Source: Candidatus Latescibacterota bacterium
GTDB lineage: Bacteria; Latescibacterota; UBA2968; UBA8231
NCBI GenBank assembly: GCA_964291625.2
Contig: OZ220089.1
Coordinates: forward strand, 3,104,001 to 3,168,000
DNA length: 64,000 nucleotides
Reading direction: 5' to 3'
In this document: positions 13,497 through 27,853 of the stretch, piece by piece
Numbering within the stretch: position 1 is the first letter of the stretch
Layout of the letters: every line of letters begins with the position of its first letter
Made by a program: the position numbers and the translations under genes
The notes under the pieces: generated by a model
Databases searched by the model: none
Told to the model about the DNA's origin: nothing
Seen by the model: only the letters and a program-made list of their open reading frames with translations

Positions 13497-14656
13497 GGAG
13501 CCGGGTTGTCGAGGGGGTCCGGCGTCCACCGGGTCGCCGCCACGTGGGTCACGCTGTCGCCGAGGGTCATGTAGTACACGGTGAACAGCGAGCCGTCCGG
13601 GAGCTGGACGGTCCGCGGATACCCCAGGTCGTCGGGTGTGCCCTTGCCGGCCACGGTGCCGTCGGTGGTGAGGCCGTCGCCCCGCAGCACGATCTCGTCG
13701 GCGGTCTCCCAGGTCTCGCAGCCGTCGCGGGAGAGGCAGGCCCGCACGCCGAAGGGAGCCCGCCGGTACCCGTAGCTGCACAGGACCTCGCCGTTGCCGA
13801 GCAGCAACAGGTGCGGAGGGTATCCCCACATGCCGGTCCTGCTGGCCGGGCTCCAGGTCTTCCCGCCGTCGTCCGAGTGCGTCTGGAAGAGGTACTTCTG
13901 CTCCTGCGGAATGCGTTTGCTGCCGCTCGCGATGCGCACCAGCGCCACGACGCGTCCCCCCGGCAGCGCCAGGAGGCTGCTCTCGTTGAAGGGATGGTCG
14001 CCGCCGTCGTACGCCATCGTCACCATCTCCCAGGTGTCGCCCCCATCCTCCGAGCGCAGCACCCACGCCCGGAAGGGATCGCCGGCCGCGGCGCTGCCGT
14101 AGACCTGGTGCAGGATCGTGTCGTCGGCGAGGACACAGCTCTTCAGGTCGGACCCGTTGCGGACCAGGGCGAAGAACGGCAGCTCCTCGCCGCTCCGGAG
14201 CAGACGGTGTTCCCAGTCTTCTCCCGGGCGCTTGCGCGACATCCGCAGGCTGTGCTCCACGTGGATGCGCTCGGGGAACTCCTCCACCGCAAAGCCGCGC
14301 CGCGCGAACTCCTCCCGGCGACCGGGCGGGTACGAGTTCACGGGCCGGGAGATCCGGATCTGGGTGCCGTCGCTCAGCACCGCGCTCCTCAGCGCCTCCG
14401 GGCACTCGCGGTAGCCGTCGTCCTTCCCCTCCTCGAACCAGCTCTCCCCGCCGTTTGGGGAGAACAGTTCCACGTGGCCCGTCGCACCTCCCGCCAGTCC
14501 ACCGGAATGAGAGTGAGCGGCGCCCTCGACACCGCGCGCCAGCGGCGTGTGGGCGTTCCAGTTGAAGCCGACCCAGAGCTCGTGGCGGTCTCCCCGGACC
14601 ACGTTGGGGAAGCTGGAGTACCGCTCCGGGTGCCAGTACAATACCGAGTGATTCAT
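13493..14656 (-). CDS. Sialidase-like/BNR (Asp-box) repeat protein
   Basis: SxDGGxTW Asp boxes (SEDGGDTW, SDDGGKTW, SRDGCETW), DLGYP; start MNHSVLYW. Confidence 0.8.
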   Translation of the reverse strand: MNHSVLYWHPERYSSFPNVVRGDRHELWVGFNWNAHTPLARGVEGAAHSHSGGLAGGATGHVELFSPNGGESWFEEGKDDGYRECPEALRSAVLSDGTQIRISRPVNSYPPGRREEFARRGFAVEEFPERIHVEHSLRMSRKRPGEDWEHRLLRSGEELPFFALVRNGSDLKSCVLADDTILHQVYGSAAAGDPFRAWVLRSEDGGDTWEMVTMAYDGGDHPFNESSLLALPGGRVVALVRIASGSKRIPQEQKYLFQTHSDDGGKTWSPASRTGMWGYPPHLLLLGNGEVLCSYGYRRAPFGVRACLSRDGCETWETADEIVLRGDGLTTDGTVAGKGTPDDLGYPRTVQLPDGSLFTVYYMTLGDSVTHVAATRWTPDPLDNPAP

Positions 14657-14711
14657 GGGCGTCCGATCACAGCCGTCGAAGATAGCCAGGGCCTGGGAGG
14701 GCGCGAACCGC

Positions 14712-16253
14712 ATGGATATCGGATCGAGGAAGCAGCTCTTCGTCGACGATCGCTTCATCGCCGCCGGCCGCGGGGTGGAGCTGGTGATGAATCCGCCCCA
14801 CCAGGCCCCGGAGCCGGTGGTGACCGCCGGCGCCCCGTGGGAGGACCCGTCCGACACCAGCCTTGGCATCTACAGCAGCGTGCTTGGGGAGGATGGTCGC
14901 GTCCGGCTGTGGTACCACGTGCGCAGGGCCAGGGAGGATTCCGAGCGCAGCCTGGATCAGGCCTGCGTCGGTTATGCCGAATCGACGGACGGCATCCACT
15001 TCGACAAGCCGGAGCTGAACCTGATCGAAGAGGGCGGATCGACGGCGAACAACGTCGTCATCCCCGGCAAGATCGGCGGCAGCTCGGTCTGGATCGATCC
15101 GAATGCTCCACCCGGGGAGCGCTACAAGAACCAGTCGAAGGTCTACAATCCCGAAGTGGCGATGCAGTTCCACATGCACGGCTCGCCCGACGGTGTGCAC
15201 TGGAAGTTCCTCCGCCGCCTGCAGCTCCCTCACCGGGGCGGCTGGGACACGCAGAGCATCATCTTCTGGGATCCCGCCATCGGGCGCTACGTCCTCTACA
15301 CCCGCCGCTGGGTCGCCAAACGCCACACCACCGCCCAAGGGAACGAGAACTACCGGACCGTCAGACGGCTCGAGTCGGACGATCTGATCGACTGGGACAA
15401 CCAGAAGACGGTCATGTGGCCGGACGAGGAAGACCTGGCGACGTACGAGACCGGGGCGCCGCTGGATCCGACGGCGCCGGAGAAGCCCTACGGCCGGACG
15501 CCGATGGACTACTACGGCGCCACCGTGTTCAAGTACCCGGACCCGGACGGCGTGTACGTCATGCTCGCCAACGCCAACTGGTACTGGTTCAACCGCGAGC
15601 CGCTGGTGACCACGGTCCGCGACGACATGGATGTCCTGCGCACCGAGACGCAGCAGATCTACGGGCCCAGCCGCTTCGACGCGCGCCTGTCGGTGAGCCG
15701 CGACGGCGTGAACTTCCAGCGTTGCGGCGGCCGACGGCCCTTCCTGAGCCCGGGGCCCGAGGGCAGCTACTCCTCCCGCATGGTCTGGGCCATGCCCCGG
15801 CCGGTGCGGATGGGTGACGAGATCTGGCTCTACTACAGCGGCACCAACAGGGACCACGACGGCCTCGTCGACCCCGCGGCCCAGGGCCTGCTTTCCGGCA
15901 TCGGCCGCGCGGTGCTGCGGCTGGACGGGTTCGTGTCGGCCGATGCCGGCTACGGCGGCGGCGAGATCGTCACGCCCGTCGTCCGCTTCGAGGGGGAGCG
16001 ACTGGAGCTGAACGTCGACACCGGCGGCGGCGGCGCGGTGCGCGTGGAGCTTCAGGATGGGGAGGGCCGGCCGATCAGCGGCTACACCGAGGGCGACGCC
16101 GCCTGGATCTGCGGCAACTCGGTGCGCATGCCGGTGCGCTGGGGGAACAGCGGCGATGTCGGCCCTCTTGCCGGCCAACCGGTCCGGATCCGTTTCGTCA
16201 TGCGCGACTGCAAGCTCTACGCCTTTCAGTTCGTCGGATCGACGGCCTCGTGA
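14712..16253 (+). CDS. Putative five-bladed beta-propeller glycoside hydrolase-like protein
   Basis: QLFVDD, YAESTDGIHF, SRDGVNF, IWLYYSG, LRLDGFVS, KLYAFQF. Confidence 0.6.
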   Translation: MDIGSRKQLFVDDRFIAAGRGVELVMNPPHQAPEPVVTAGAPWEDPSDTSLGIYSSVLGEDGRVRLWYHVRRAREDSERSLDQACVGYAESTDGIHFDKPELNLIEEGGSTANNVVIPGKIGGSSVWIDPNAPPGERYKNQSKVYNPEVAMQFHMHGSPDGVHWKFLRRLQLPHRGGWDTQSIIFWDPAIGRYVLYTRRWVAKRHTTAQGNENYRTVRRLESDDLIDWDNQKTVMWPDEEDLATYETGAPLDPTAPEKPYGRTPMDYYGATVFKYPDPDGVYVMLANANWYWFNREPLVTTVRDDMDVLRTETQQIYGPSRFDARLSVSRDGVNFQRCGGRRPFLSPGPEGSYSSRMVWAMPRPVRMGDEIWLYYSGTNRDHDGLVDPAAQGLLSGIGRAVLRLDGFVSADAGYGGGEIVTPVVRFEGERLELNVDTGGGGAVRVELQDGEGRPISGYTEGDAAWICGNSVRMPVRWGNSGDVGPLAGQPVRIRFVMRDCKLYAFQFVGSTAS

Positions 16254-16339: not shown

Positions 16340-17872
16340 ATGAGAGTGGAACCCTGGCGTGCCTGCCGCGGCTGGTTCCTGGCGCCGGTCGCCGTTGCCT
16401 GTTGCATCTCCGCTTGCTCCCTCGCCCCGAAGCAGACCCCCCCGACTCTCGAAGCGGTCGAGGAGTTGCCGGCCGGGTTTGCCGGCAGCGAGGCCGCCGG
16501 CCCGCACGAGCCGCTGCAGTGGTGGAAGAGCTTCGCGGACCCGGCCCTCGACCGCGTGATCGCGGCGGCCCTCGCCTCGAACTTCGACCTGGCCGAGGCG
16601 GTCGCCCGGGTCGATCAGGCCCGGGAGCGGGAACGCATCGCCAAAGCCTCGGCCTTCCCCTTCCTTCAGCCCTCCGTCGCCGTCAGCGACTCCGACACAC
16701 CTACCAACGCCGGCATCGGCGCCCAGTTCGACGAGCTGGGGCTGGGGATCGTCCTCCCCGACCGGCTCGGCCTGACCACCTACACCGCCGCCGCGGAAGT
16801 CGCCTACGAGCTCGACTTCTGGGGGCGCAACCGCAACGACGCCCGCGCCGCCGGAGCGCAGCGGCTGGCTTCGGAGTCGGACTACCTCACGGCCCGCATG
16901 GGGGTGCTGGCCGAGACCGTGCGGACCTGGCTGGAGATCGTCAACCTGCGCCGCCAGCGGCAGCTGGCAGGCGGGATCGTGGAGCTCCTGCAGGACCGGG
17001 AGTCGCTGGCCGAGTCGCGCTATGACCGCGGGCTGACCGACGACAGCGGCCCCCGTGCGGCTCGGCAGAGCCTGCGCAATGCCCAGGCCGAGCTGCCGCA
17101 GATCGAGGCCCTGCTGGCGGAGGCGGAGGGGCGGCTCTGGGTGCTTCTGGGGGGATACCGCGCCGAGCTGGCCGGGATACTGCCCGATTCACCGACCCCC
17201 GCCGCGGCGCTGGAACCGGTACCGGCGGGCATTCCGGCGGATCTCCTGGTGCAGCGGCCCGACGTCAGGGCGGCACGACAGCGGGTGGAAGCGGCCCGGT
17301 ACGCCGTCGGCGCCCGCCGCGCGGAGCTGCTGCCGAGACTGTCGCTGCACGGTTCCATCGGCGTGCAGAGCGCCGAGGCCGGTGAGTGGTTCGATCCGGA
17401 CCAGTGGTTCCGCAACCTGACTGTGAACCTCCTCGGCCCCGTCTTCCAGGGTTCCCGGCTGCGCGGCAATGTCGCCCTGGCCGAGGCCAGGCTGAGGGAA
17501 GCGGCCGCCGCCTACGGGCGGACCGTGGTGACCGCGGTCAACGAGGTCGAGGCCGCCCTCGCGGGGCTGGAGGCCGGCCGCCGCCGCCACTCGCTGCTGG
17601 TCTCCCTGACGGAGGAAGCCGGGGCCGAAGCCGACCTGCAGGAGCGGCGGTACCTCTCCGGAGTGGGCGAGTACGAGACCTGGCTGGCAGCGGCGCAGGT
17701 TCACCTGGGCGCGCAGTCGGTGCAGGCGGCGGCGGAGCGCGATCTGGGTTCCTTCCGTCTCGCGCTGCACCGGGCCCTGGGAGGGGCGTGGACCGCCGAC
17801 GACGGGGAGGCTGTCCAACAGAGTGACGCCGCGGTCGCCTCACCGCCTCTTCCCGCGACTTCCACGGAGTAA
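16340..17872 (+). CDS. Efflux outer-membrane lipoprotein (TolC/NodT/OprM family)
   Basis: Lipobox ISAC, WWKSFADPAL, YELDFWG, QRPDVRAA, LHRALGGAW; start uncertain (16322/16340). Confidence 0.9.
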   Translation: MRVEPWRACRGWFLAPVAVACCISACSLAPKQTPPTLEAVEELPAGFAGSEAAGPHEPLQWWKSFADPALDRVIAAALASNFDLAEAVARVDQARERERIAKASAFPFLQPSVAVSDSDTPTNAGIGAQFDELGLGIVLPDRLGLTTYTAAAEVAYELDFWGRNRNDARAAGAQRLASESDYLTARMGVLAETVRTWLEIVNLRRQRQLAGGIVELLQDRESLAESRYDRGLTDDSGPRAARQSLRNAQAELPQIEALLAEAEGRLWVLLGGYRAELAGILPDSPTPAAALEPVPAGIPADLLVQRPDVRAARQRVEAARYAVGARRAELLPRLSLHGSIGVQSAEAGEWFDPDQWFRNLTVNLLGPVFQGSRLRGNVALAEARLREAAAAYGRTVVTAVNEVEAALAGLEAGRRRHSLLVSLTEEAGAEADLQERRYLSGVGEYETWLAAAQVHLGAQSVQAAAERDLGSFRLALHRALGGAWTADDGEAVQQSDAAVASPPLPATSTE

Positions 17873-17879
17873 AACCGCC

Positions 17880-19078
17880 ATGTCCCGCATTGGCCGTGTC
17901 GTTTCCCGCATTCGCAGCTTCCTGATAGCCGGAGTCATCCTGGCTGCCTCCGTGGGTCTGGCCGCACTCCTGGTCTCACTGGCCCCCGAGCCGGCCCGCA
18001 CCGAGTCGCCGCCGCAGATCCCCTTCGCGCAGACGGCGCCGGTCAAGGCCGAGTCCGGCGCCATACCCGTGTACGGGGGCGGTACGGTGCGGCCGAGCGC
18101 CGAGATCGATGTGGCGCCGCAGGTGGGCGGACGAGTCGCCTGGGTGGACCGGGTTTCCAGAGCGGCGGCCGCGTGAAGGCGGGCCAGACGCTCTTCCGCC
18201 TCGAGGAGGCGGACTATCTCTACCGGGTGCAGGAGGCCAGGGCCAGTCTCGCCGCCCGCCGCGTGGCCCTGCTCCAGGAAGAGGAACAGGCGGCGATCGC
18301 CCGCGCCCAGTACGAGCTCTACTCCGAGCGGCAGGGGGCCGCGACTTCGCAGTCGGCCGCCAATCCCCTCACCCTGAGGGAGCCCCAGTTGGAGGCTGCC
18401 CGTGCCGCCCTCGGCCGCGACGAGGCCCTCGTGGCCGCCGCTGAACTCGCCCTCTCCAGGACCCGGGTGAACGCCCCCTTCGACGGCTTTGTCCGCGAGG
18501 AGTCCGTCGACGTGGGACAGATCGTCGCCCCCGGCCAGCCCGTGGGGCGGCTCTTCGCCGCCGACGCGGTGGAGGTGGTGGTGCCCGTGACCAATGCCGA
18601 GGCGGCCCTGATCCCGGGGCTGTGGGAGCTCAGGCCGGGCGACGGGGACCGGCGGGTGGGGGCCCGGGTGGTCGCCCGGTACGGCGGCGGCACCCACGCC
18701 CGGACAGGCTACGTCGACCGGGGCGAGACATCCGTCGACGAGCGGACCCGCACCGTCGACGTGATCGTGCGGGTTCCGGACCCGTTCGCCGGCAGCAACC
18801 CGTTGCTGGTGGGTGCCTTCGTGGAGGTGGAGATCGAGGGCCTCCGGCTGGACCGCTACTACAAGGTGCCACGAGCCGCGCTGCGGCCGGGGAACGAGGT
18901 CTGGCTGGCCGGGGAAGGCGGCCTCGTGAGCATCGTCCCCGTGCAGGTCCTGCAGCGCGGCGATGACGAGGTCTTCGTGACCGGCGGCCTGGAGAGCGGC
19001 GGCACCGTGGTCACCGGGGGGATCCGGTTCGCCACCGAGGGCATGCGCGTCCTGACGGGAGCCGCCCCGGCGCCATGA
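17880..19078 (+). pseudogene. RND periplasmic adaptor (MFP), split by a 1-nt deletion at ~18150 (frameshift or sequencing error)
   Basis: EIDVAPQVGGRVAWVD in one frame continues as GFQSGGRVKAGQTLFRL...APFDG in another. Confidence 0.8.
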
Positions 19079-22000
19079 GTCCCGCCAACGGCAACCACGA
19101 GGAACGGCCCGGACCGCTCGCCTACATGGCGGGCAACGGAGTGGCCGCCAATCTGCTGATGTGGGCCATCATCGCCGCCGGGCTGGTGTCGCTCACCGGC
19201 ATCGAGCGGGAAGCCTGGCCGACCACCCCCTTCTACCATATCGAAGTCTCCATGGCCTATCCCGGCGCCACGCCGGAGGAGATCGAGGAGTCGATCGTCG
19301 TCAAGATCGAGGACCAGGTCAGCGGGCTGGATGACGTGAAGGCGGTCAAGTCCGTAGCGGCCCCGGGCATGGCCTCCGTGCGCGTCCAGATGGACTTCGA
19401 CACGGACATGGCCCGGGCCCAGGACGATATCGAGTCCGCGGTCAATCGCATACAGTCCTTCCCGGCCGGCGCCGAACGTCCCCGGTTCCGGGAGATGAAC
19501 AACCGCATGAGCATGATGCGGCTCATCGTCCACGGCGATGTCTCCGAGCGCTCGCTGAAGGAACTGGCGCACCAGATCGAGGACGACCTCACCACGCTGC
19601 CCTCCGTCTCCCAGGTGGAAGTCAGCGGCGTCCGGAGCTACGAGATCTCCATCGAGGTGCCCCTTGCCCGCCTGAGGGCCCTCGGGCTCACGCTCGACGA
19701 CATCGCCGGCACGATCCGCCGCAGTTCCCTGGACCTGTCGGCCGGCAGCATCGATACCCGCGAGTCCCAGGTGCGGGTCCGCACCCTCGGCCAGAACTAC
19801 GACCAGCAGGACTTCGAGGAGATCGTCCTTCTCAGCGGCCGTGACGGCACGGTCCTGCGTCTCGGCGACATCGCCGAGGTCCGCGACGGTTTTCAGCAGA
19901 CCGACCTGATCGTCCGGCACCAGGACCGGCCGGCCGTGTTCGTGGAGGTCTTCCGGGCCGACGGCGAGCAGGTGATGGATGTGGCCACGAGCGTCCGGGA
20001 GCACCTGGCGAACGAGGTGGTCCCGGCCCTGCCCGACGGGGTGGGAGTCACCATCTGGAACGACGAATCCCAGGCGTATGAGGAACGGGCCGATCTGCTC
20101 CTCAAGAACGGTGTCCTCGGCCTGTTGCTGGTGCTGATCGCGCTCAGCCTGTTCCTCGAAGTCCGCCTCGCCCTGTGGGTCTCCGTGGGCCTCGTCGTCT
20201 CGGGCATGGGCGCCCTCGCCGTCATGATGGCATTCGACGTGGCGATCAACACCATCAGCCTGTTCTCCTTCGTCCTCGCCATAGGGATCGTCGTCGACGA
20301 TGCCATCGTCGTGGCCGAGCACATTCGATACGAACGCAAGCGGGGAACACCCGGGGTGGCGGCCGCGATCCGGGGTGTGCGGCGGATCAAGGTGCCCTTG
20401 ACCTTCGCCGTCCTCACTTCGGTGGTGGCCTTCGTCCCGCTGCTGTTCATCCCGGGCGGCGTCGGTGACGTGTGGCGGGCCCTGCCGATCATCCTCATCG
20501 CCATGCTGCTGGTCTCCCTCGTGGAATCGCTGCTGGTGCTGCCCAACCACCTGTCCCATCTGCACGGCCCGGAATGGGTGCCGGGCAATCCCTTCGACCG
20601 GTTCTTCGCCGGGCTCCAGGGCCGTGTCGACTCGCTGCTGAACCGGTTCGTGCAAGGGCCCCTGGACCGGGCCCTGCGGTTCGCCACGGACCAGCCCGGG
20701 GTGACGATGGCGGGGGCCGTGGGAATGCTCGTGCTGAGCATCTCCCTGCTGCCGGCGGGGATCGTCCCTACCACGCTGGCGGCGGACGTGGAGGGGGACA
20801 TCGCGACGGCCGTCCTGGAGATGCCCGACGGCGCGACCGCTTCGAGGACCTACGAAGTGGCGCAGGAACTCGAGGCCGCGGGCCACCGGGTCATCGAGCG
20901 GCTCTCGCGCGGCCGGCCCGGGGACGCGCCGCCGCTGCTGACCGGGGTCACGTTGACCGTGGGCCTGGGCTCGAGACTCGAGGGCGGGCTCAACCCGGAG
21001 CCAACCCTGAATCCGCAAGCCAATATCGCCACCATCGAGTTCAAGCTCCTGGGAGCCCAACAGAGGGAGATCTCCACCGGGGAGGTGGTGCAGGCGTGGC
21101 GGGAGGAGGTGGGTGTCCTGCCCTACGTTCGCGGCCTCACCTTCACCAGCGAGATCTTCACCCTGGGCAACCCGGTGGAGGCGGTGCTGTCCCATCCGGA
21201 CCCGGAGCGCCTCGCCCAGATCGCCGACACGGTGGTCGAGGGCCTCCGGGGAGTGGGAGGCGTCTACGACATCCGGTCGGACCACACTCCCGGCATCCCG
21301 GAATTCCAACTGGAGTTGCGGCCGGAAGCGCGGACCCTCGGTCTCACGGTGCAGGAGCTGGCGGGGCAGGCGCGCGCCGCCTTCTTCGGCGCCGAGGCCG
21401 TCCGGGTGCAGCGCGGCCGGGAAGAGGTGCGGGTCTACGTGCGTCTGCCCGGGGAAGAGCGGAACTCCATCACCGATGTCGAAGGCTACCTGGTGCGCAC
21501 GCCGGGGGGGGCCGAGGTCCCGGTCATCAGCGTCGCCTCCGTGAACCCGGGGGTGTCGCCCACGGCGGTCCGGCGCAGGGATGGCCAGCGCGTCGTCACG
21601 GTCACCGCCGACGTGGACCCTTCGGTGATCTCCGGCGACGAAGCCAACGAGATCCTGGCCAGTTCGATCCTCGCGGACCTGACCGCCGTGTACCCGGCCC
21701 TGACATACACGTTCGGTGGGGAACAGCAGCAGCAGCTGGAGTCCCTGGACGCGCTCTACCGCGGCTTTGCCGTCGCCCTGATCATGATCTTCGCGCTCCT
21801 CGCCATCCCCCTCCGCTCGTATACCAAGCCGTTCATCATCATGGCCGTGATCCCCTTCGGCTTCATCGGCGTGATCCTGGGCCACTGGATCCTGGGAGTC
21901 GCCCTGAGCGCCGTCTCCTTCATGGGGATCTTCGGTCTGAGCGGGGTGGTGGTGAACGATTCCCTGGTCATGATCGATTTCATCGATCAGAAACTCGGGG

Positions 22001-22269
22001 AAGGCTCCCCGGCCAGAGCTGCGATCGTGGAGGGCGCCAAGGGGCGCTTCCGTCCGATCATGCTCACTTCGGTGACGACCTTCCTCGGCTTCACGCCCCT
22101 CATCCTGGAACGCGCCATCCAGGCCCAGTTCCTGGTCCCCTTTGCGGCGTCGCTCGGTTGCGGCATTCTCTTCACCACGGCCATACTCATGATGGTCGTT
22201 CCCGCGCTGTGCACCATACATCTGCGTCTGATGGCCTGGCGGCGCCCCTCCGCCGCCACTACCGCGTGA
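19075..22269 (+). CDS. RND efflux permease (AcrB/AcrD/AcrF family)
   Basis: 1064 aa; GIVVDDAIVVAE, SGVVVNDS, RFRPIMLTSVTT. Confidence 0.92.
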   Translation: MSPANGNHEERPGPLAYMAGNGVAANLLMWAIIAAGLVSLTGIEREAWPTTPFYHIEVSMAYPGATPEEIEESIVVKIEDQVSGLDDVKAVKSVAAPGMASVRVQMDFDTDMARAQDDIESAVNRIQSFPAGAERPRFREMNNRMSMMRLIVHGDVSERSLKELAHQIEDDLTTLPSVSQVEVSGVRSYEISIEVPLARLRALGLTLDDIAGTIRRSSLDLSAGSIDTRESQVRVRTLGQNYDQQDFEEIVLLSGRDGTVLRLGDIAEVRDGFQQTDLIVRHQDRPAVFVEVFRADGEQVMDVATSVREHLANEVVPALPDGVGVTIWNDESQAYEERADLLLKNGVLGLLLVLIALSLFLEVRLALWVSVGLVVSGMGALAVMMAFDVAINTISLFSFVLAIGIVVDDAIVVAEHIRYERKRGTPGVAAAIRGVRRIKVPLTFAVLTSVVAFVPLLFIPGGVGDVWRALPIILIAMLLVSLVESLLVLPNHLSHLHGPEWVPGNPFDRFFAGLQGRVDSLLNRFVQGPLDRALRFATDQPGVTMAGAVGMLVLSISLLPAGIVPTTLAADVEGDIATAVLEMPDGATASRTYEVAQELEAAGHRVIERLSRGRPGDAPPLLTGVTLTVGLGSRLEGGLNPEPTLNPQANIATIEFKLLGAQQREISTGEVVQAWREEVGVLPYVRGLTFTSEIFTLGNPVEAVLSHPDPERLAQIADTVVEGLRGVGGVYDIRSDHTPGIPEFQLELRPEARTLGLTVQELAGQARAAFFGAEAVRVQRGREEVRVYVRLPGEERNSITDVEGYLVRTPGGAEVPVISVASVNPGVSPTAVRRRDGQRVVTVTADVDPSVISGDEANEILASSILADLTAVYPALTYTFGGEQQQQLESLDALYRGFAVALIMIFALLAIPLRSYTKPFIIMAVIPFGFIGVILGHWILGVALSAVSFMGIFGLSGVVVNDSLVMIDFIDQKLGEGSPARAAIVEGAKGRFRPIMLTSVTTFLGFTPLILERAIQAQFLVPFAASLGCGILFTTAILMMVVPALCTIHLRLMAWRRPSAATTA

Positions 22270-22299
22270 TGCGCGTCAGATGCGGGGAGGCGAGAGACG

Positions 22300-24333
22300 A
22301 TGGCTGACTCGACCGAGGGTTTGACGACCCAACCGCTGACTCTGACTCAGGAACTCATCCTCATGCTCCTCAGCGAGGAGACCGGCTACTTTCACCAGGT
22401 ACCCGGATGGCATCTGCACTGCGCCGTCATCGGCGCCGTGCTCGCGGAGCTTTCACTCCAATCTCGCATCGACACCGACATGGAGTCCCTGTTCCTCGTG
22501 GACGAGTCGGAGACGGGCAACCCGGCCCTGGACCCCATTCTGAAGGAGATTGCAGCCGAGTCCGTTCAACGGAACGCCCAGTACTGGATCGAACGGCTCG
22601 CTCCCCGGGCGGAGTCGATCATCGATTCGGTCCTGGACCGCCTGGTGGACCTGAAGATCCTGGAGTACCACGATGGGGAATTCTGGACACTGGCTCCCAC
22701 CGTCTGGCATGGGGAACTGCCCGACCAGTCGGAAGAGGGCAATGCAGGCCAGTTCATAAAGACGCGGATCAGCAGGGTCATCTTCACCGACGAGATTCCC
22801 GATCCGAGAGATGTGATCATCATCTGCCTCGTCAATACCTGCGACATCTTTCGTTTCATATTCCAGCTCGACGAGGAGGCGGAGGAGCGCATCGAGTTCA
22901 TCTGCAGGATGGACCTGATCGGCCGCTCCCTGGCCGCCGCGGTCTCTCAGAACCTCGCCGTCCCGTCCCTTCAAAGTTCTGCCCTCCACAGGAAGATTCC
23001 GACGGTCTCCCTGACCAGGCTGCTGCGCAACCCCCATGCTCGAGACGGCAACCTGAACGCGCTCTTCGGGAACCTGGCGGAGGAGTACGGCCCGGTCTTC
23101 CAGATCCGCCCTCCTCTCTCGAAGCCCATGATTTTCCTGGCCGGACCCGAAACGAACCGCTGGGTGCACAAGCGCGGGCGCATGTACCTGAGAGCCAGGG
23201 ACTACTTCAGCGACTTCGAGAAGGTCTACGGCGCCTCCGGCGTCCTGCCCGCCCTGGACGGGGCCGATCACTTCCGGCTTCGCAAGTCCTTGTCGCCGGC
23301 CTATTCCGGCGGCAGGCTGGGAGGGCAGCTGGACCAGCTCTACAACCTGGGGCGCAAGTACCTGGCGAGCCTGACGGTCGGGGACTCCTACCGCGCCACG
23401 TCCATGTGCCGGGAGATGGTGAACGCCCAGCTCTCGCCACTCTTCATCGGCGTCGACACCCAGGACCTCATGGACGACCTGATGGCCTACAAAATGCGGG
23501 CCCTCAGCGTACACGTGGCCAAGGTCCTGCCCAAGTTCACGCTCAACACCCCGGGCATGAAACGCCGGGCGAAAGCCCTGGACACACTGATGGAGCGGGT
23601 CCAGGGCGTCCATACCCCCGCCCAACGGGCGGACTCCCCGCGGGACCTGGTGGACGATTACCTCAGCCTCCACGCGAGCGACCCCCAGTTCCTCCCGGAG
23701 TCCAACCTGCGGTTCGCCTTCTCGGCGGCCCTGATTGCCAGCGTGTACCTCGGCGACACGTTCAGCCTCGTAGTCTACGCCATGGCGTCGCAGCCCGACC
23801 TCTACGCCAGGATCCAGGCCGAAGCCGATGCCCTCTTCGCCAAGGGCGACCCCGGGAGAGAGGAGTTCACCCCCGCCAACATCGACGTGACGCACCGGTT
23901 CCTCATGGAATGCCTGCGCATGTACCCCATCGTCTCCATGTCCATTCGGAACGTGATGAACACGTGCGTGGTCGAGGACTACGAGCTGCCCGTGGGGGAA
24001 CGGCTCCACATCGCCATGACCGCCACACACTACATGAGCGACATCTTTCCCGACCCCGGCAAGTTCGACATCGACCGCTACCTGCCGCCGCGCCAGGAGC
24101 ATCGCAGCCCCGGGTACGCCCCGTACGGGCTGGGCACGCACAAGTGTCTCGGCACCCGGTGGATGGAGCTGCACCTGGCGGCGAACCTGCTGATGCTGGC
24201 GCACTACTTCACGATCGAGGTGACGCCGGAGAAGTTCAAGTCCAGGCTCCGTTTCAGTCCGTTCCCGTCGCTGAAGCCGAGCAAGAAGCTGAGGTTCCGC
24301 ATCTCCGGGCAGAGGCGCGAGCTGCCCGCCTGA
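22300..24333 (+). CDS. Cytochrome P450 with N-terminal GPP34/GOLPH3-like domain
   Basis: N-term LTLTQELILMLLSEETG...GAVLAELSLQSRI (GPP34 pattern); C-term ECLR (ExxR), FDIDRY, YGLGTHKCLG heme-Cys. Confidence 0.85.
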   Translation: MADSTEGLTTQPLTLTQELILMLLSEETGYFHQVPGWHLHCAVIGAVLAELSLQSRIDTDMESLFLVDESETGNPALDPILKEIAAESVQRNAQYWIERLAPRAESIIDSVLDRLVDLKILEYHDGEFWTLAPTVWHGELPDQSEEGNAGQFIKTRISRVIFTDEIPDPRDVIIICLVNTCDIFRFIFQLDEEAEERIEFICRMDLIGRSLAAAVSQNLAVPSLQSSALHRKIPTVSLTRLLRNPHARDGNLNALFGNLAEEYGPVFQIRPPLSKPMIFLAGPETNRWVHKRGRMYLRARDYFSDFEKVYGASGVLPALDGADHFRLRKSLSPAYSGGRLGGQLDQLYNLGRKYLASLTVGDSYRATSMCREMVNAQLSPLFIGVDTQDLMDDLMAYKMRALSVHVAKVLPKFTLNTPGMKRRAKALDTLMERVQGVHTPAQRADSPRDLVDDYLSLHASDPQFLPESNLRFAFSAALIASVYLGDTFSLVVYAMASQPDLYARIQAEADALFAKGDPGREEFTPANIDVTHRFLMECLRMYPIVSMSIRNVMNTCVVEDYELPVGERLHIAMTATHYMSDIFPDPGKFDIDRYLPPRQEHRSPGYAPYGLGTHKCLGTRWMELHLAANLLMLAHYFTIEVTPEKFKSRLRFSPFPSLKPSKKLRFRISGQRRELPA

Positions 24334-24344
24334 GGGCCCACGGA

Positions 24345-25379
24345 ATGGGGCTGGCGAAACTGTCGAGAGGGCTGAGAGACGCGTACCGGGGATCGGGCGT
24401 CGCGGCTCGAGTCCGGCACTTCCACGGCTGGCTCGACAGGGCGGCGCCGGAGGCTGGCGGCGCGGGCGGGTACGACCACACGGAGACGGTCAAGGACTAC
24501 TACGACCTCTGCAGCGGCTTCATGGTGTGGGGCTGGGGCGAGTCCCTGCACTTCGCGCCCCTCGCGCCTCATGAGAGTCTGGAGGAGTCCAAGGTCCGCC
24601 ACCAGCGGATGATGATCTCCGAGTTGGAGCTGCAACCGGGTATGACGGTGGTCGACGTGGGTTGTGGAGTCGGCGGCCCCATGCGCCGCGTCGTCCGCGA
24701 GGCCGGGGTCAGGGTCGTGGGTGTCAACATCAACGAGATCCAGTTGCAGGAGGCGAAGAGGTTGACCGCCGAGGCGGGGCTCGATCACATGGTCGACTTC
24801 GAGACGTGCAGCTTCATGGACATGAGCGCCATCGAGGACGACACCTTCGACCGGGGGTATGCCATCGAGTCAACGTGCCATGCGCCGGACAAGCAGCGCT
24901 CTTTCGCGGAGATACTGCGCGTGCTGAAACCGGGCGGCCTGCTCTGGGGGCAGGAGATGTGTCTGACGGACCGGTTCGATCCCAAGGACGACCGGCACCG
25001 GGCCATCAGGCAGGATCTCATGCACGGCATTGCGCTGAAGGAGATCGCCACCTTCGGGGAAGTGAATCAGGCGCTCGAAGCGGCGGGATTCCAACTCGTG
25101 CAAGGGATGGACCGGGGCGTCCAGGAGGGACCCTCCACGCCCTGGTACCAGCCCATGGTGGGTCGCCACGGGACGTTGGGGAACGCTCTTCGCAGGCTTC
25201 CGTGGGGCCGCAAAGGGGCCATCGCAGGATCGAAGCTGGCTGAAGTACTGCGGATTTTTCCGAAGGGCTCGGCGGAGGTCGTCCGGCTTCTCGATCGCAC
25301 CGCGGAGGCTTACATCGCGGGCGGCAAGGCGGGCATCTTCACGCCCCTGTACTGTTTCCTGGCTCGCAAGCCGCTGTAG
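24345..25379 (+). CDS. Sterol C-24-methyltransferase (SMT/Erg6-like)
   Basis: YYD...WGWGESLHFAP, VDVGCGVGGPMR, YAIESTCHAP, LKPGG, C-terminal GIFTPLYCFLARKP. Confidence 0.85.
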   Translation: MGLAKLSRGLRDAYRGSGVAARVRHFHGWLDRAAPEAGGAGGYDHTETVKDYYDLCSGFMVWGWGESLHFAPLAPHESLEESKVRHQRMMISELELQPGMTVVDVGCGVGGPMRRVVREAGVRVVGVNINEIQLQEAKRLTAEAGLDHMVDFETCSFMDMSAIEDDTFDRGYAIESTCHAPDKQRSFAEILRVLKPGGLLWGQEMCLTDRFDPKDDRHRAIRQDLMHGIALKEIATFGEVNQALEAAGFQLVQGMDRGVQEGPSTPWYQPMVGRHGTLGNALRRLPWGRKGAIAGSKLAEVLRIFPKGSAEVVRLLDRTAEAYIAGGKAGIFTPLYCFLARKPL

Positions 25380-25404
25380 CAGGATCTTCCGGGACCTGAC
25401 GAGC

Positions 25405-26775
25405 GTGGCCGGACCGCGGCGGATCGCCATCGTCGGCGGAGGCGTTTCGGGACTCGGGGCCGCCTGGGCCCTGCAACGCCACCCCGACCGGTTCGACTTC
25501 CGCCTCTTCGAGGCCGGGGACCGGGTCGGCGGGAACGCGGTCACCGCCGACATGCCGCAGGACCACGGCCCCCCCATTCCCTTCGACATTTCGGTGACCG
25601 CCTGCATTCCGTCGGTCTACCGGCACATCCTCCTGTTGATGGAACAGTTCGGCATCGAGCTGGTCGATACCCGGTTCAGCTACAGCGTGAGGTACCGGGG
25701 CCGCGTCTACGCCCACGACTTCGAGTCCGAGATCAGGGATGAGCTGCGGGTCGAGATCGCCCGGTTCCAGCGGCTCCTGGGGCGCCTGCGCCGGATCGGC
25801 TGGCTGACCCGGTCCCGGTCGAGGTTCCTGAACGCTCTCAATCCCTTCAACTACATCAGCATGGGGACGGTCCTGAACCTGGGCGGCTTCTCCGGGGACT
25901 TCAGGTACAAGATCCTGAAGCCGATGTTCGTCAACTTCCTGATGGCGACCAACGTCTTCGACATGCCCGCGGCCCTCTTTGCGAGGTACCTCGAGTTCTT
26001 CGACATCGAGACCGCCACCCCCATGCAGACGTGGGACCGGGGAACGCGGCGGATCTACGAGCACCTGTGCGCCGGCTTCCGGGACAGGATCTACCTGGGC
26101 CGGCCGGTCCGCAAGGTCTGGCGCGAGTCGTCCCGCGTCGTGGTGGAGGACGAGGACGGGGAGCGGGAGGTTTTCGACGGGGTGATCTTCGCCTGCAACG
26201 CCAACCAGACGCTGATGATCCTCGACCGGCCGACGTTGATGGAGAGGCACCTGCTATCGTCGATACGCTACGAGAGCGAGCTCCACAACCACACGGTCGT
26301 CCACTGCGACGCCTCGGTACTTCCGGATGACGAGGCCAAGCCCCTGACGACGCGCAGCAATCACATCGAGCAGTACGGCGCCCGGCCGGACAACTACGAG
26401 ATCACCTACATCATGCACAACCAGCAGCCCTGGGCCAGGCAGTCGGACAGGCCCTGTCTGGTGACCTACAACCCGGTGAGCCCCATCGATGCGGAGAAGG
26501 TCATCGGAAGGTGGTGGTTCCAGCACATCGTCCATGACGTGCGCCACGTGGCCCTCCTCGTCCCCCTGTTCCGCTTCATCCAGGGGAAGAGGCGGACCTG
26601 GCACTGCGGCGCCCATACGCTGGTCAACAGCCAGGAGACCTGCTTCGTCAGCGGCCTGGCCGCGGCCCGGCAGATCGGCGCCGACTATCCCTTCGACGAC
26701 CCCGAGGCGAGACGGTCCTTCAACCACTACGGGAGCATCATGTACGGCTGGCGGTTCCGCAAAGCGAAGGGCTGA
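25405..26775 (+). CDS. FAD-dependent oxidoreductase (amine-oxidase/COG2907-like)
   Basis: IAIVGGGVSGLGAAW, FEAGDRVGG, QGKRRTWHCGA, SGLAAARQIG. Confidence 0.8.
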   Translation: MAGPRRIAIVGGGVSGLGAAWALQRHPDRFDFRLFEAGDRVGGNAVTADMPQDHGPPIPFDISVTACIPSVYRHILLLMEQFGIELVDTRFSYSVRYRGRVYAHDFESEIRDELRVEIARFQRLLGRLRRIGWLTRSRSRFLNALNPFNYISMGTVLNLGGFSGDFRYKILKPMFVNFLMATNVFDMPAALFARYLEFFDIETATPMQTWDRGTRRIYEHLCAGFRDRIYLGRPVRKVWRESSRVVVEDEDGEREVFDGVIFACNANQTLMILDRPTLMERHLLSSIRYESELHNHTVVHCDASVLPDDEAKPLTTRSNHIEQYGARPDNYEITYIMHNQQPWARQSDRPCLVTYNPVSPIDAEKVIGRWWFQHIVHDVRHVALLVPLFRFIQGKRRTWHCGAHTLVNSQETCFVSGLAAARQIGADYPFDDPEARRSFNHYGSIMYGWRFRKAKG

Positions 26776-26800
26776 CGGCCGGAGTGGAAGCGCTCCCGGT

Positions 26801-27853
26801 CTATCCCTCCGGACCGGGGTAGAACTGGCGGCAGTAGCGGCGGTACGCGCCGATGGGGCCGTCGGCGCGGCAGAGGCGGGGGGGCGTCCGGTAGCGTTTG
26901 CGTTCCCAGATCACCACGTCCTGGAGCACATCCCGCTTCTGCTGGGAGAGCAGGATCTGATTCATCAACCTCCTGCGCAGTTTCCCTGGCAGGAAACCGA
27001 GGCCGGAGATGAATCGCCGGGGTTTGCGGATCTCGCGCAGTTGGCTGACCAGGACAAGATCGAGGAGTGATCCATCGACAGGTGTGGGGAGTACCCACAG
27101 CCGCGCATGCATGTCGATCGTCTTCTCGTGGATCTCGACGAAGGAGTAGCCCAGGCCGTGGAGGTGGGTGACGGCCGAGACTTCGTACGCCTGGTCCTTT
27201 ACACCCAGTATCCGGCGAACCCGCTTGAAGTCGAAGCAACTCCGCAGGTAGGCGCCGTCGACCGTCAGTGAGCCGACGGGATTCACATTGTCGTAGCCGT
27301 GGACGTAGCGCAGGTGGCCCAGGTCCACGGAGTTCTCCGCCGTTTCCTGGGGATGGGCGCGGAACCGGAGGGTGCGGAATCCGAGGGGGCCCCACTCCTG
27401 GCCGGTGGCCGGGTCCTCCGGGAGGTGCCAGTGCGCGGGACGGCCGCCGCTCCCGAACCAGGCGAAGACCAGGCCGAGGACCTCCCGGGTCTCGTACACC
27501 TTCAGCCTGGCGGCTCTCGGGGCCGGGGCGTTGGGAGTGGCAACGCACTGGCCGGCGGCGTCGAACTCGAAGCCGTGAAAGGGACAGACGAGGCGGCCGT
27601 TGCACACCTTGCCGCCCACGCCGGGGCCCAGGGACGAGCCCAGGTGCGGGCACAGGGAGTCGGCCACGCATACACGGCCTTCGTCGTCGCACCAGACGAC
27701 GATCTCCTCGCCCAGCCAGGTCTTCTCGATCAGTCTCTCCCGCAGAATCGACTCACGGCTGGCGACGAAGTACCACCCCTCGGGGAAGGGGGGCAGGTCA
27801 CGATCGCCATCCGCGGCTGCGGTCCGCGGGGCCTCGGGTCCCGACGAAGACAT
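26801..27853 (-). CDS. Rieske non-heme iron oxygenase/desaturase (Neverland/KshA-like)
   Basis: PPFPEGWY, CPHLG...CPFHG Rieske motif, ENSVDLGHLRYVH Fe motif, QDVVIWERK. Confidence 0.8.
   Translation of the reverse strand: MSSSGPEAPRTAAADGDRDLPPFPEGWYFVASRESILRERLIEKTWLGEEIVVWCDDEGRVCVADSLCPHLGSSLGPGVGGKVCNGRLVCPFHGFEFDAAGQCVATPNAPAPRAARLKVYETREVLGLVFAWFGSGGRPAHWHLPEDPATGQEWGPLGFRTLRFRAHPQETAENSVDLGHLRYVHGYDNVNPVGSLTVDGAYLRSCFDFKRVRRILGVKDQAYEVSAVTHLHGLGYSFVEIHEKTIDMHARLWVLPTPVDGSLLDLVLVSQLREIRKPRRFISGLGFLPGKLRRRLMNQILLSQQKRDVLQDVVIWERKRYRTPPRLCRADGPIGAYRRYCRQFYPGPEG

Follow-up and report, generated by a model that had tools for sequence, protein, structure and literature searches.

A conserved gene cassette joins a sterol methyltransferase, a GPP34-cytochrome P450 fusion and a Rieske oxygenase to an RND transporter in sponge-associated bacteria: a candidate island for tailoring and exporting exogenous sterols

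The window analysed here is a stretch of 64,000 nucleotides from contig OZ220089.1 of a Candidatus Latescibacterota bacterium, whose genome comprises 5.9 Mb in 2 contigs. At positions 16340-27853 of the window lies a cassette of seven genes (Table 1), in which the components of a tripartite RND pump are followed by a GPP34-cytochrome P450 fusion, a sterol methyltransferase (SMT) and a flavoprotein, with the gene for a Rieske oxygenase converging on them from the opposite strand. The GC content of the window is approximately 70%, which produces many spurious reading frames; real genes were told apart from these by codon-position GC. From the outer-membrane factor (OMF) to the flavoprotein, consecutive genes are spaced by 7 nt, a 4-nt overlap, and 30, 11 and 25 nt, and the stop codon of the flavoprotein gene is located 25 nt from that of the Rieske gene; within the operon, a search gave no promoter-like or terminator-like site above the chance level. 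Domain searches and coordinates thus bear out the gene list of the original prediction, as well as the tight packing (gaps of at most 30 nt, one overlap) and the convergent Rieske gene that it had described. Apart from a frameshift in the adaptor gene, all seven reading frames are intact, and catalytic motifs are visible in the translations. The genes flanking the cassette are unrelated to it, and encode a UvrD-type helicase, a 532-residue protein, a GNAT acetyltransferase and a large protein with a FlgD_ig domain.

Table 1. Genes of the cassette, with window coordinates, strand and profile matches (scores in bits)
Product	Position	Strand	Profile matches
NodT/TolC-family outer-membrane factor (OMF) lipoprotein, part of tripartite RND pump	16340-17872	+	Pfam OEP 136.8; TIGR01845 (outer_NodT) 263.7 (cut-off 210)
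Periplasmic adaptor (membrane-fusion protein)	17880-19078	+	HlyD_3 40.8; TIGR01730 145.1 (cut-off 94.9)
RND inner-membrane pump, distant HAE-1 (AcrB/MdtB) type	19075-22269	+	ACR_tran 523.7
GPP34-cytochrome P450 fusion ("GPP34_L" architecture), 677 aa	22300-24333	+	GPP34 99.3; p450 117.1
Sterol side-chain (C-24 type) methyltransferase, SMT	24345-25379	+	Sterol_MT_C 59.4 (cut-off 21.7)
FAD-dependent oxidoreductase, amine-oxidase fold, LkcE-like	25405-26775	+	Amino_oxidase 67.5; NAD_binding_8 45
Rieske non-haem iron oxygenase with KshA-type C-terminal domain; gene converges on operon	26801-27853	-	Rieske 61.7; KshA_C 81.3

The SMT matches Methyltransf_11 (65.3 bits) and CMAS, and its match to Sterol_MT_C covers profile positions 5-65 of 66, so that the protein unites a class I S-adenosylmethionine methyltransferase core with Sterol_MT_C, the domain composition of the ERG6/SMT1 family. 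The gene is single-copy in the genome, and PF08498 had no match in any of 14 control genomes (0/14). SMTs of sponge symbionts have been reported to methylate desmosterol and 24-methylenecholesterol in vitro, with products up to the 24-isopropyl type (Brown et al. 2023, PMC10070321). The window SMT most likely alkylates a sterol side chain at C-24.

In the fusion, GPP34 occupies residues 15-216 and p450 residues 414-648; an N-terminal GPP34 domain joined to a P450 in a sponge symbiont is the arrangement described as GPP34_L. The fusion is the sole PF00067 match, and hence the only P450, in the genome. Its translation displays the ExxR motif and the Cys-ligand stretch of a P450, and C616, G610, G612, H614, E537 and R540 are invariant across 31 aligned fusions. 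The nearest solved relatives of the P450 part are CYP51, CYP120 and taxadiene hydroxylase, all of them distant; it belongs to the eukaryote-like part of the P450 family. A stand-alone short GPP34 gene is also present far from the cassette, at G000:C1:2118752-2119351 (L085:6708-7388); its product scores 161 bits and is 40% identical to the fused domain. It stands in a row with genes for a 425-aa protein of no assigned function, a DAO-type FAD oxidoreductase and an M19 dipeptidase, and similar short copies occur in many relatives.

The Rieske protein matches KshA_C over positions 2-207 of 207 and shows CxH...CxxH and DxxHxxxxH stretches, the motifs of the cluster and iron ligands; it thus joins a Rieske domain to a KshA-type catalytic domain, as KshA does, and KshA_C has no second gene in the genome. 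Its nearest solved relatives are KshA, SxtT and DdmC, the KshA match (E 4e-21) extending over the N-terminal half only, and against the SdmA model NF052579 it scores 36.6 bits, the cut-off being 600. A homologue search returned only in-clade proteins with generic names. A representative search gave 408 relatives at E 1e-30 or better, and the ten clusters examined carry generic names only; a further search with the homologue P0092 again returned generic Rieske clusters, with a "cholesterol 7-desaturase family" ranked 23rd, which is taken as a lead only. One relative, P0152 (645 aa), was considered as a GPP34-Rieske fusion and rejected, its N-terminus having neither a GPP34 match nor similarity to the window fusion. 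P0152 is 41% identical to the cassette Rieske protein, the members of its cluster are named Acidimicrobiia, and its N-terminal extension of 295 residues belongs to no Pfam family and looks membrane-spanning by eye. In a Bryobacterales genome (G034), a KshA-like Rieske gene is located approximately 660 nt from an ERG4/ERG24-family gene (G034:C1:4647289-4649494); the SMT locus of this genome (L059) is without a Rieske gene, the KshA-like one lying elsewhere on the chromosome.

The flavoprotein aligns over its full length with solved LkcE (E 3.8e-29) and is more weakly similar to 2b9w, a fatty-acid double-bond isomerase (E 7e-12). In furan fatty acid synthesis, the UfaM/UfaD pair is described as a methyltransferase and a flavin desaturase (PMC7380195). 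By analogy, a reasonable guess is that the cassette flavoprotein works as a flavin desaturase at a bond adjacent to the methyl branch that has just been introduced. In one Nitrospirales locus (L038:3597-4986), the flavoprotein is split into two frames, by a frameshift or an assembly error.

The three pump genes encode OMF, adaptor and permease together, as is characteristic of a tripartite HAE-1 RND pump. A lipobox-like ISAC was read by eye after the signal peptide of the OMF, and the ACR_tran match of the permease spans profile positions 10-1016 of 1021; among solved structures it is closest to MdtB, AcrB and MexB, with E values of 7e-69 and weaker. MMPL is matched only secondarily, with 24.9 bits (cut-off 20.5), far under the score for ACR_tran, and an identification of the permease as a BstA/HpnN-type MMPL sterol/hopanoid transporter was rejected, since the ACR_tran match dominates. 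The adaptor gene is split in the assembly by a -1 frameshift just after position 18148, the two frames meeting near 18148-18176. At this point, 14/14 relatives aligning there have one extra base. Public sequencing runs labelled sponge metagenome were among the best matches to the DNA of the region, which speaks for a sponge setting; runs X6-X20, with small word shares, were left out of this habitat evidence. X2, X3 and X4 were aligned to the region, plus X1, whose organism label is coded, and contigs of the short-read runs X1, X2 and X3 (3 of the four runs aligned) insert a C behind 18148, one such contig being otherwise identical to the window across 17860-19130 (0 other differences). Because both the relatives and the short-read contigs carry the extra base, the frameshift is most likely a homopolymer error of the assembly; the alternative that the adaptor is a true pseudogene was rejected on the same grounds, the base being present in all 14 relatives and in contigs of the same strain.

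In order to gain insight into the conservation of the cassette, the SMT was used to scan one genome per species, which yielded 550 relatives; the best 80 loci, with 72-89% SMT identity, were kept, and the presence of the other cassette genes was scored in them by tblastn. Full 10-kb flanks are available for 62 of these loci. By their record titles, the 80 loci come from metagenome-assembled genomes (MAGs) of at least nine phyla, labelled Latescibacterota, Gemmatimonadota, Chloroflexota, Nitrospirota, Nitrospinota, Acidobacteriota, Actinomycetota, Verrucomicrobiota and Rhodothermota. The GPP34-P450 fusion was found near the SMT in 76/80 loci (61/62 of those with full flanks), and the Rieske gene in 70/80 (56/62), at median distances of 53.5 nt and 497.5 nt, respectively; the fusion was at most 2 kb from the SMT in 67/76 loci. 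The flavoprotein was present in 35/80 loci (28/62). An AcrB-type RND transporter of at least 60% identity accompanied the SMT in 40/80 loci (36/62), an MMPL-type RND transporter in 19/80 (17/62), and any RND-superfamily transporter in 62/80 (55/62); the corresponding counts were 22/80 (22/62) for the adaptor and 13/80 (13/62) for the OMF. The window's own flanking genes recur in just 1 and 2 of the 80 loci, those of its closest relatives (L017 and L024). The cassette is a conserved, transferable unit, and the search for synteny across MAGs that the original prediction had proposed as its own test came out in its favour.

The MMPL transporters also match sterol-sensing-domain and Patched models and are of two types, one of which is confined to Dehalococcoidia loci. 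Because the enzyme core is joined to three different kinds of RND-superfamily transporter, we reasoned that transport belongs to its function. Beside the transporter region, 15/80 loci have a gene for an outer-membrane beta-barrel (PF13505), for example at L038:7914-8738, between the MMPL and Rieske genes; this protein may be the outer-membrane partner for sterol transfer.

The link to sterols is seen most directly in a Nitrospirales genome (G023), where the cassette stands at the end of a sterol supercluster of approximately 30 kb (L083:8037-15586, L038:133-14169). In order, it holds two additional SMT-like genes and a gene for an SdmB-like epimerase/3beta-HSD. Next come an SdmA-like Rieske protein scoring 410.6 bits on NF052579, ERG24 at 231.7 bits, a true CYP51, and a fusion of squalene epoxidase with an oxidosqualene-type cyclase (734 bits to TIGR03463). 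The flavoprotein gene follows, then those for an MMPL transporter and a beta-barrel protein, and lastly the Rieske gene, SMT and GPP34-P450 of the cassette. An rve integrase gene is also found in this genome, at L083:82-1029. SdmA-like genes scoring 407-413 bits are close to the cassette in G023 and in two other genomes (G026 and G029). The epoxidase-cyclase fusion occurs within 10 kb in 5/80 loci, or in 8 if fragments at locus ends are counted, and in the Nitrospirales loci two or three SMTs stand beside it.

These neighbours also served to delimit what the cassette enzymes are. On NF052579 the cassette Rieske protein scores 35 bits and the neighbouring SdmA-like protein 410; an identity as SdmA (4beta-methylsterol monooxygenase) was rejected, because the window protein is far under the cut-off and a separate SdmA-like gene coexists with the cassette in all three genomes. 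Similarly, the true CYP51 of G023 matches solved CYP51 at E 1.5e-102, whereas the fused P450 is 21% identical to it and has a weak, partial-length match to solved CYP51, so that an identity of the fused P450 as CYP51 (sterol 14alpha-demethylase) was rejected as well. Since the canonical enzymes of C-14 and C-4 demethylation are already beside the cassette in G023, we reasoned that the cassette adds other steps. Its adjacency to a sterol cluster in Nitrospirales supports a sterol as the probable substrate.

No squalene epoxidase or oxidosqualene cyclase (OSC) had been noticed in the window, and this holds for the whole genome (95% complete), in which PF13243 and PF08491 gave 0 matches. The 46 other cassette genomes, of which many are single chromosomes, divide into 4 with an OSC-type cyclase (in each case as a fusion), 7 with only a hopene-cyclase-like gene and 35 with no full-length cyclase; most of the 42 that have no OSC-type cyclase carry an intact cassette. 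A stand-alone homologue of the ERG4/ERG24 reductase family (125.6 bits) is encoded in the window's genome at G000:C1:828019-829149 (L084:7020-8225), 2.3 Mb from the cassette, and is flanked by peptidase and beta-lactamase-fold genes. This family was over the cut-off in 28/46 cassette genomes vs 0/14 control genomes.

The distribution of the cassette is best read as that of a horizontally exchanged accessory island of sponge-associated and, by record titles, some coral-associated bacteria. A tree of 81 SMT sequences is shallow, with short branches, across the nine labelled phyla. The phylum labels cluster on this tree, with 13 changes vs 40.7 in shuffles, which suggests a small number of jumps, with most of the later spread inside lineages. 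A full-length orthologue of the fusion, of at least 88% identity, was found in 5/40 relatives of the window's genome; 2 of these 5 are among 9 genomes of the same genus and 2 belong to a different family of the class, and one same-genus genome consisting of a single contig shows the short GPP34 only. The enzyme half of the cassette has a GC content of 65.3%, against a genome median of 70.1%, which places it at the 9th percentile among segments of equal size.

Together these data make it rather probable, in our judgement, that the cassette is an island for sterol tailoring and export which acts on exogenous sterols. The original prediction of a module for host or environmental sterols gains support in this respect from the Nitrospirales linkage, from the lack of cyclase and epoxidase in the window's own genome, and from the presence of OSC in 4/46 others. 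With neither squalene epoxidase nor cyclase in the genome, the bacterium would have to obtain the sterol from its sponge host or from microbes nearby. The SMT would alkylate the side-chain olefin of the sterol at C-24, and the GPP34-P450, the KshA-type Rieske enzyme and, where present, the flavoprotein would carry out oxidations, desaturations and double-bond shifts other than C-14/C-4 demethylation. The P450 might thus desaturate or hydroxylate the side chain, the Rieske enzyme desaturate or hydroxylate the ring, and the flavoprotein desaturate or isomerise the bond adjoining the new methyl branch. The GPP34 domain would keep the P450 on a membrane or lipid surface rather than form part of a secreted effector, and the OMF-adaptor-RND pump would pick up the sterol or its product at the inner membrane or in the periplasm and carry it out of the cell. 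Tripartite RND pumps take up what they transport in the periplasm or at the outer leaflet and extrude it; export is proposed for the window pump because AcrB/MdtB-like systems work in this way. The nature of the substrate, the positions at which it is altered, the part played by GPP34 and the direction in which the pump works are inferences, and the individual reaction steps are guesses.

Several observations weigh against this reading. The genome is 95% complete with 6.6% contamination, so that the absence of a cyclase is not absolute, and it retains one SQS_PSY (squalene/phytoene-synthase) gene, at G000:C1:2134548-2135420 (L086:5485-6609), between an MFS transporter gene and lytB. The RND pump falls below every NCBIfam subfamily cut-off, the best being NF033617 with 420.5 vs 1250 bits, followed by TIGR00915 with 304.3 vs 940, and AcrB-type pumps are generalists of broad specificity. 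The nearest solved relatives of the flavoprotein act on a polyketide amide and on fatty acids, and the best solved CYP51 match to the fusion (E 9e-19) comprises residues 181-427, in the C-terminal half only. By eye, all four enzymes are without signal peptides, so that the sterol must reach the cytoplasmic face; neither a ferredoxin or reductase partner nor a sterol importer was found in the cassette. Pairwise identities of SMT, P450 and Rieske protein correlate moderately (Spearman 0.41-0.60), and the P450 is of two subtypes, with at least 60% identity in 62 loci and approximately 41-46% in 14; both observations imply that the unit was not always inherited as one block. Contigs of an RNA library (run X3) lie on parts of all genes, where DNA carry-over is possible, and were not counted as transcription.

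The substrate need not be a sterol. The cassette could methylate and oxidise another hydrophobic olefin, such as squalene or another bacterial triterpenoid, a hopanoid-type lipid, or a host terpenoid or defence compound, and the pump would then serve detoxification or the secretion of a metabolite. An alga has squalene methyltransferases of the SMT family, and together with the synthase gene beside lytB they make a non-sterol triterpene a possible substrate; the hopene-cyclase-like genes in 7/46 cassette genomes, the non-sterol substrates of the solved flavoprotein relatives, and the breadth of AcrB-type pumps, with the window pump under all subfamily cut-offs, point the same way. We nevertheless regard this alternative as unlikely, though one to be taken seriously, because Sterol_MT_C is above its cut-off, the cassette is contiguous in Nitrospirales with ERG24, CYP51, SdmA/B-like genes and the epoxidase-cyclase fusion, and transporters matching sterol-sensing-domain and Patched models were recruited in 19 loci. 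Moreover, hopanoids cannot be the general substrate when 35/46 cassette genomes are without any full-length cyclase, and symbiont SMTs have been reported to methylate sterols in vitro (PMC10070321). The layout of the locus speaks to a further alternative, in which the GPP34-P450 is a secreted effector that binds host phosphatidylinositol 4-phosphate (PI4P) and blocks phagosome maturation, its neighbours being parts of a shared symbiosis island and not of a shared pathway. This role was proposed in a study that reports the GPP34_L fusion to be monophyletic, expressed and exclusive to sponge symbionts of many phyla, and that argues from the binding of PI4P by eukaryotic GOLPH3 (PMC11706023, Microbiome 2025); the stand-alone short GPP34 far from the cassette is also in keeping with it. 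The fusion is, however, placed as in an operon, separated by 30 nt from the pump gene ahead of it and by 11 nt from the SMT behind, and stays close to the SMT across loci; no signal peptide was seen by eye in its sequence, redox partners in the cytoplasm are a requirement of haem enzymes, and its GPP34 domain gave no match to solved GOLPH3/Vps74 at E up to 0.01. In the available text of PMC11706023, the neighbours of the short GPP34 form only are examined, and the words "sterol" and "methyltransferase" are absent. Taken together, an effector role appears improbable.

Two other explanations appear more improbable still. If the cassette served sterol catabolism, the KshA-like Rieske enzyme and the P450 would open or oxidise steroids of the host to supply carbon, in the manner of cholesterol-degrading actinobacteria; KshA is indeed the nearest solved relative of the Rieske protein, KshA_C is matched over its whole length, and P450s start side-chain degradation in known pathways. 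The member conserved most is an anabolic SMT (80/80, by construction), no other KshA_C and no other P450 are encoded in the genome, no further degradation-pathway genes occur in the cassette or in the recurrent set of the 80 loci (KshB, KstD and Hsa were not searched genome-wide), and in Nitrospirales the cassette sits with biosynthetic genes, all of which makes catabolism very doubtful. A decaying remnant from a sterol-producing donor, non-functional in genomes without a cyclase, would account for the frameshifted adaptor of the assembly, the split flavoprotein of L038 and the patchy distribution within the genus. It is scarcely to be expected, given that the frameshift is missing from short-read contigs of the same strain, that the reading frames are otherwise intact with their catalytic motifs, that SMT identity is at least 71% across phyla, and that most genomes without an OSC-type cyclase have the cassette intact.

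The putative tailoring and export island for exogenous sterols can be set against several known systems. To the earlier statement that the combination is not a described pathway, it must be added that its parts have been published (PMC10070321, PMC9531527, PMC11706023); as far as the available texts go, no paper was found that joins them, and a search of the open full-text literature (with supplements, figures and subscription journals outside its scope) found no link of SMT, GPP34-P450, Rieske enzyme and pump. PMC10070321 (2023) describes symbiont SMTs clustered with sdmA/sdmB and erg homologues, with the emphasis on de novo synthesis; its main text, as available, makes no use of the words P450, Rieske or transport, and its Figure 3 or supplements may draw such neighbours under other names. 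Enzyme family and habitat are shared with those clusters, and the Nitrospirales loci with several SMTs fit them; unlike them, as far as the available text describes them, the SMT here keeps company with a GPP34-P450, a non-SdmA Rieske protein, a flavoprotein and a pump, and the genomes that carry it mostly have no cyclase of OSC type. Kelly et al. 2022 (PMC9531527) report clusters of ERG24, CYP51 and LSS, termed CSG, in Ircinia symbionts; the sterol genes concerned, SMT included, are horizontally transferred and over-represented in sponge MAGs from many phyla. The supercluster of G023 holds exactly this ERG24-CYP51-LSS core adjoining the cassette; in contrast, the three core genes do not stand together in the window's genome, which has no CYP51, no cyclase and no clustered ERG24, the stand-alone ERG4/ERG24-family gene being all that it has of them, and the cassette's own genes are not described in the available text of PMC9531527. 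The window fusion has the same two-domain architecture as the GPP34_L of PMC11706023, where GPP34-Rieske fusions in two genomes are also reported; here, it is an operon partner of the SMT in 76/80 loci, a setting on which the available text is silent in respect of sterols and methyltransferases.

The sdmAB-bstABC operon of Methylococcus capsulatus (PMC10942540), which serves sterol C-4 demethylation and sterol transport, likewise encodes a Rieske sterol oxygenase with an RND-superfamily sterol transporter and an outer-membrane component; the 19 cassette loci with a BstA-like MMPL-type transporter and the 15 with an outer-membrane beta-barrel gene resemble it in this regard. It differs in that the window pump is a tripartite efflux system of AcrB type and not MMPL, that the Rieske protein is not SdmA and no SdmB is present in the window, and that M. 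capsulatus makes its own sterols. It is the closest functional model for the cassette. Animal and ciliate sterol auxotrophs have a toolkit of the Rieske 7-desaturase Neverland/DAF-36, the SMT-family STRM-1 and the P450 DAF-9, which act on sterols taken up, with no squalene cyclisation; these are the same three enzyme classes as in the cassette, but eukaryotic and encoded by unlinked genes. We regard the cassette as a variant of the known bacterial sterol systems, namely a mobile tailoring-and-transport island carried mostly by bacteria without sterol synthesis.

Two separately published hallmarks of sponge symbionts, the bacterial SMTs and the GPP34-P450 fusion, thus lie side by side in a single operon-like cassette that also encodes a Rieske enzyme, a flavoprotein and a lipid pump. 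This offers an alternative, open to testing, to the PI4P-effector role proposed for the fusion, and names three candidate new families of sterol-tailoring enzymes. Since most carriers cannot make sterols, the question of who alkylates sponge sterols becomes a matter of host sterols and four bacterial genes; it bears on who makes the unusual "sponge" sterols and directly on the confidence with which 24-isopropylcholestane and related steranes may be interpreted as fossil traces of animals. In a wider conjecture, to which we give little credence as yet, the unusual alkylated or desaturated sterols of sponges (among them 24-isopropyl and 26-methyl sterols and the precursors of fossil steranes) would be made at least in part from host sterols by this island, in non-sterol-making bacteria of many phyla, with the product returned to the host via the pump and with GPP34 acting as a lipid-presenting or membrane-docking module for sterol oxygenases instead of a phagosome effector. 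The products of the island might also be steroid-like signals to the host.

Two of the genes beside the cassette have features of their own. The UvrD-type helicase (window 10623-14405, minus strand) combines an N-terminal helicase-IV-like region with C-terminal zinc ribbons of topoisomerase type. The 532-aa protein encoded at window 14655-16253, outside the cassette, belongs to no Pfam family; its gene has a coding-type codon bias, and the protein is conserved (89%) only in the closest relative, L017.

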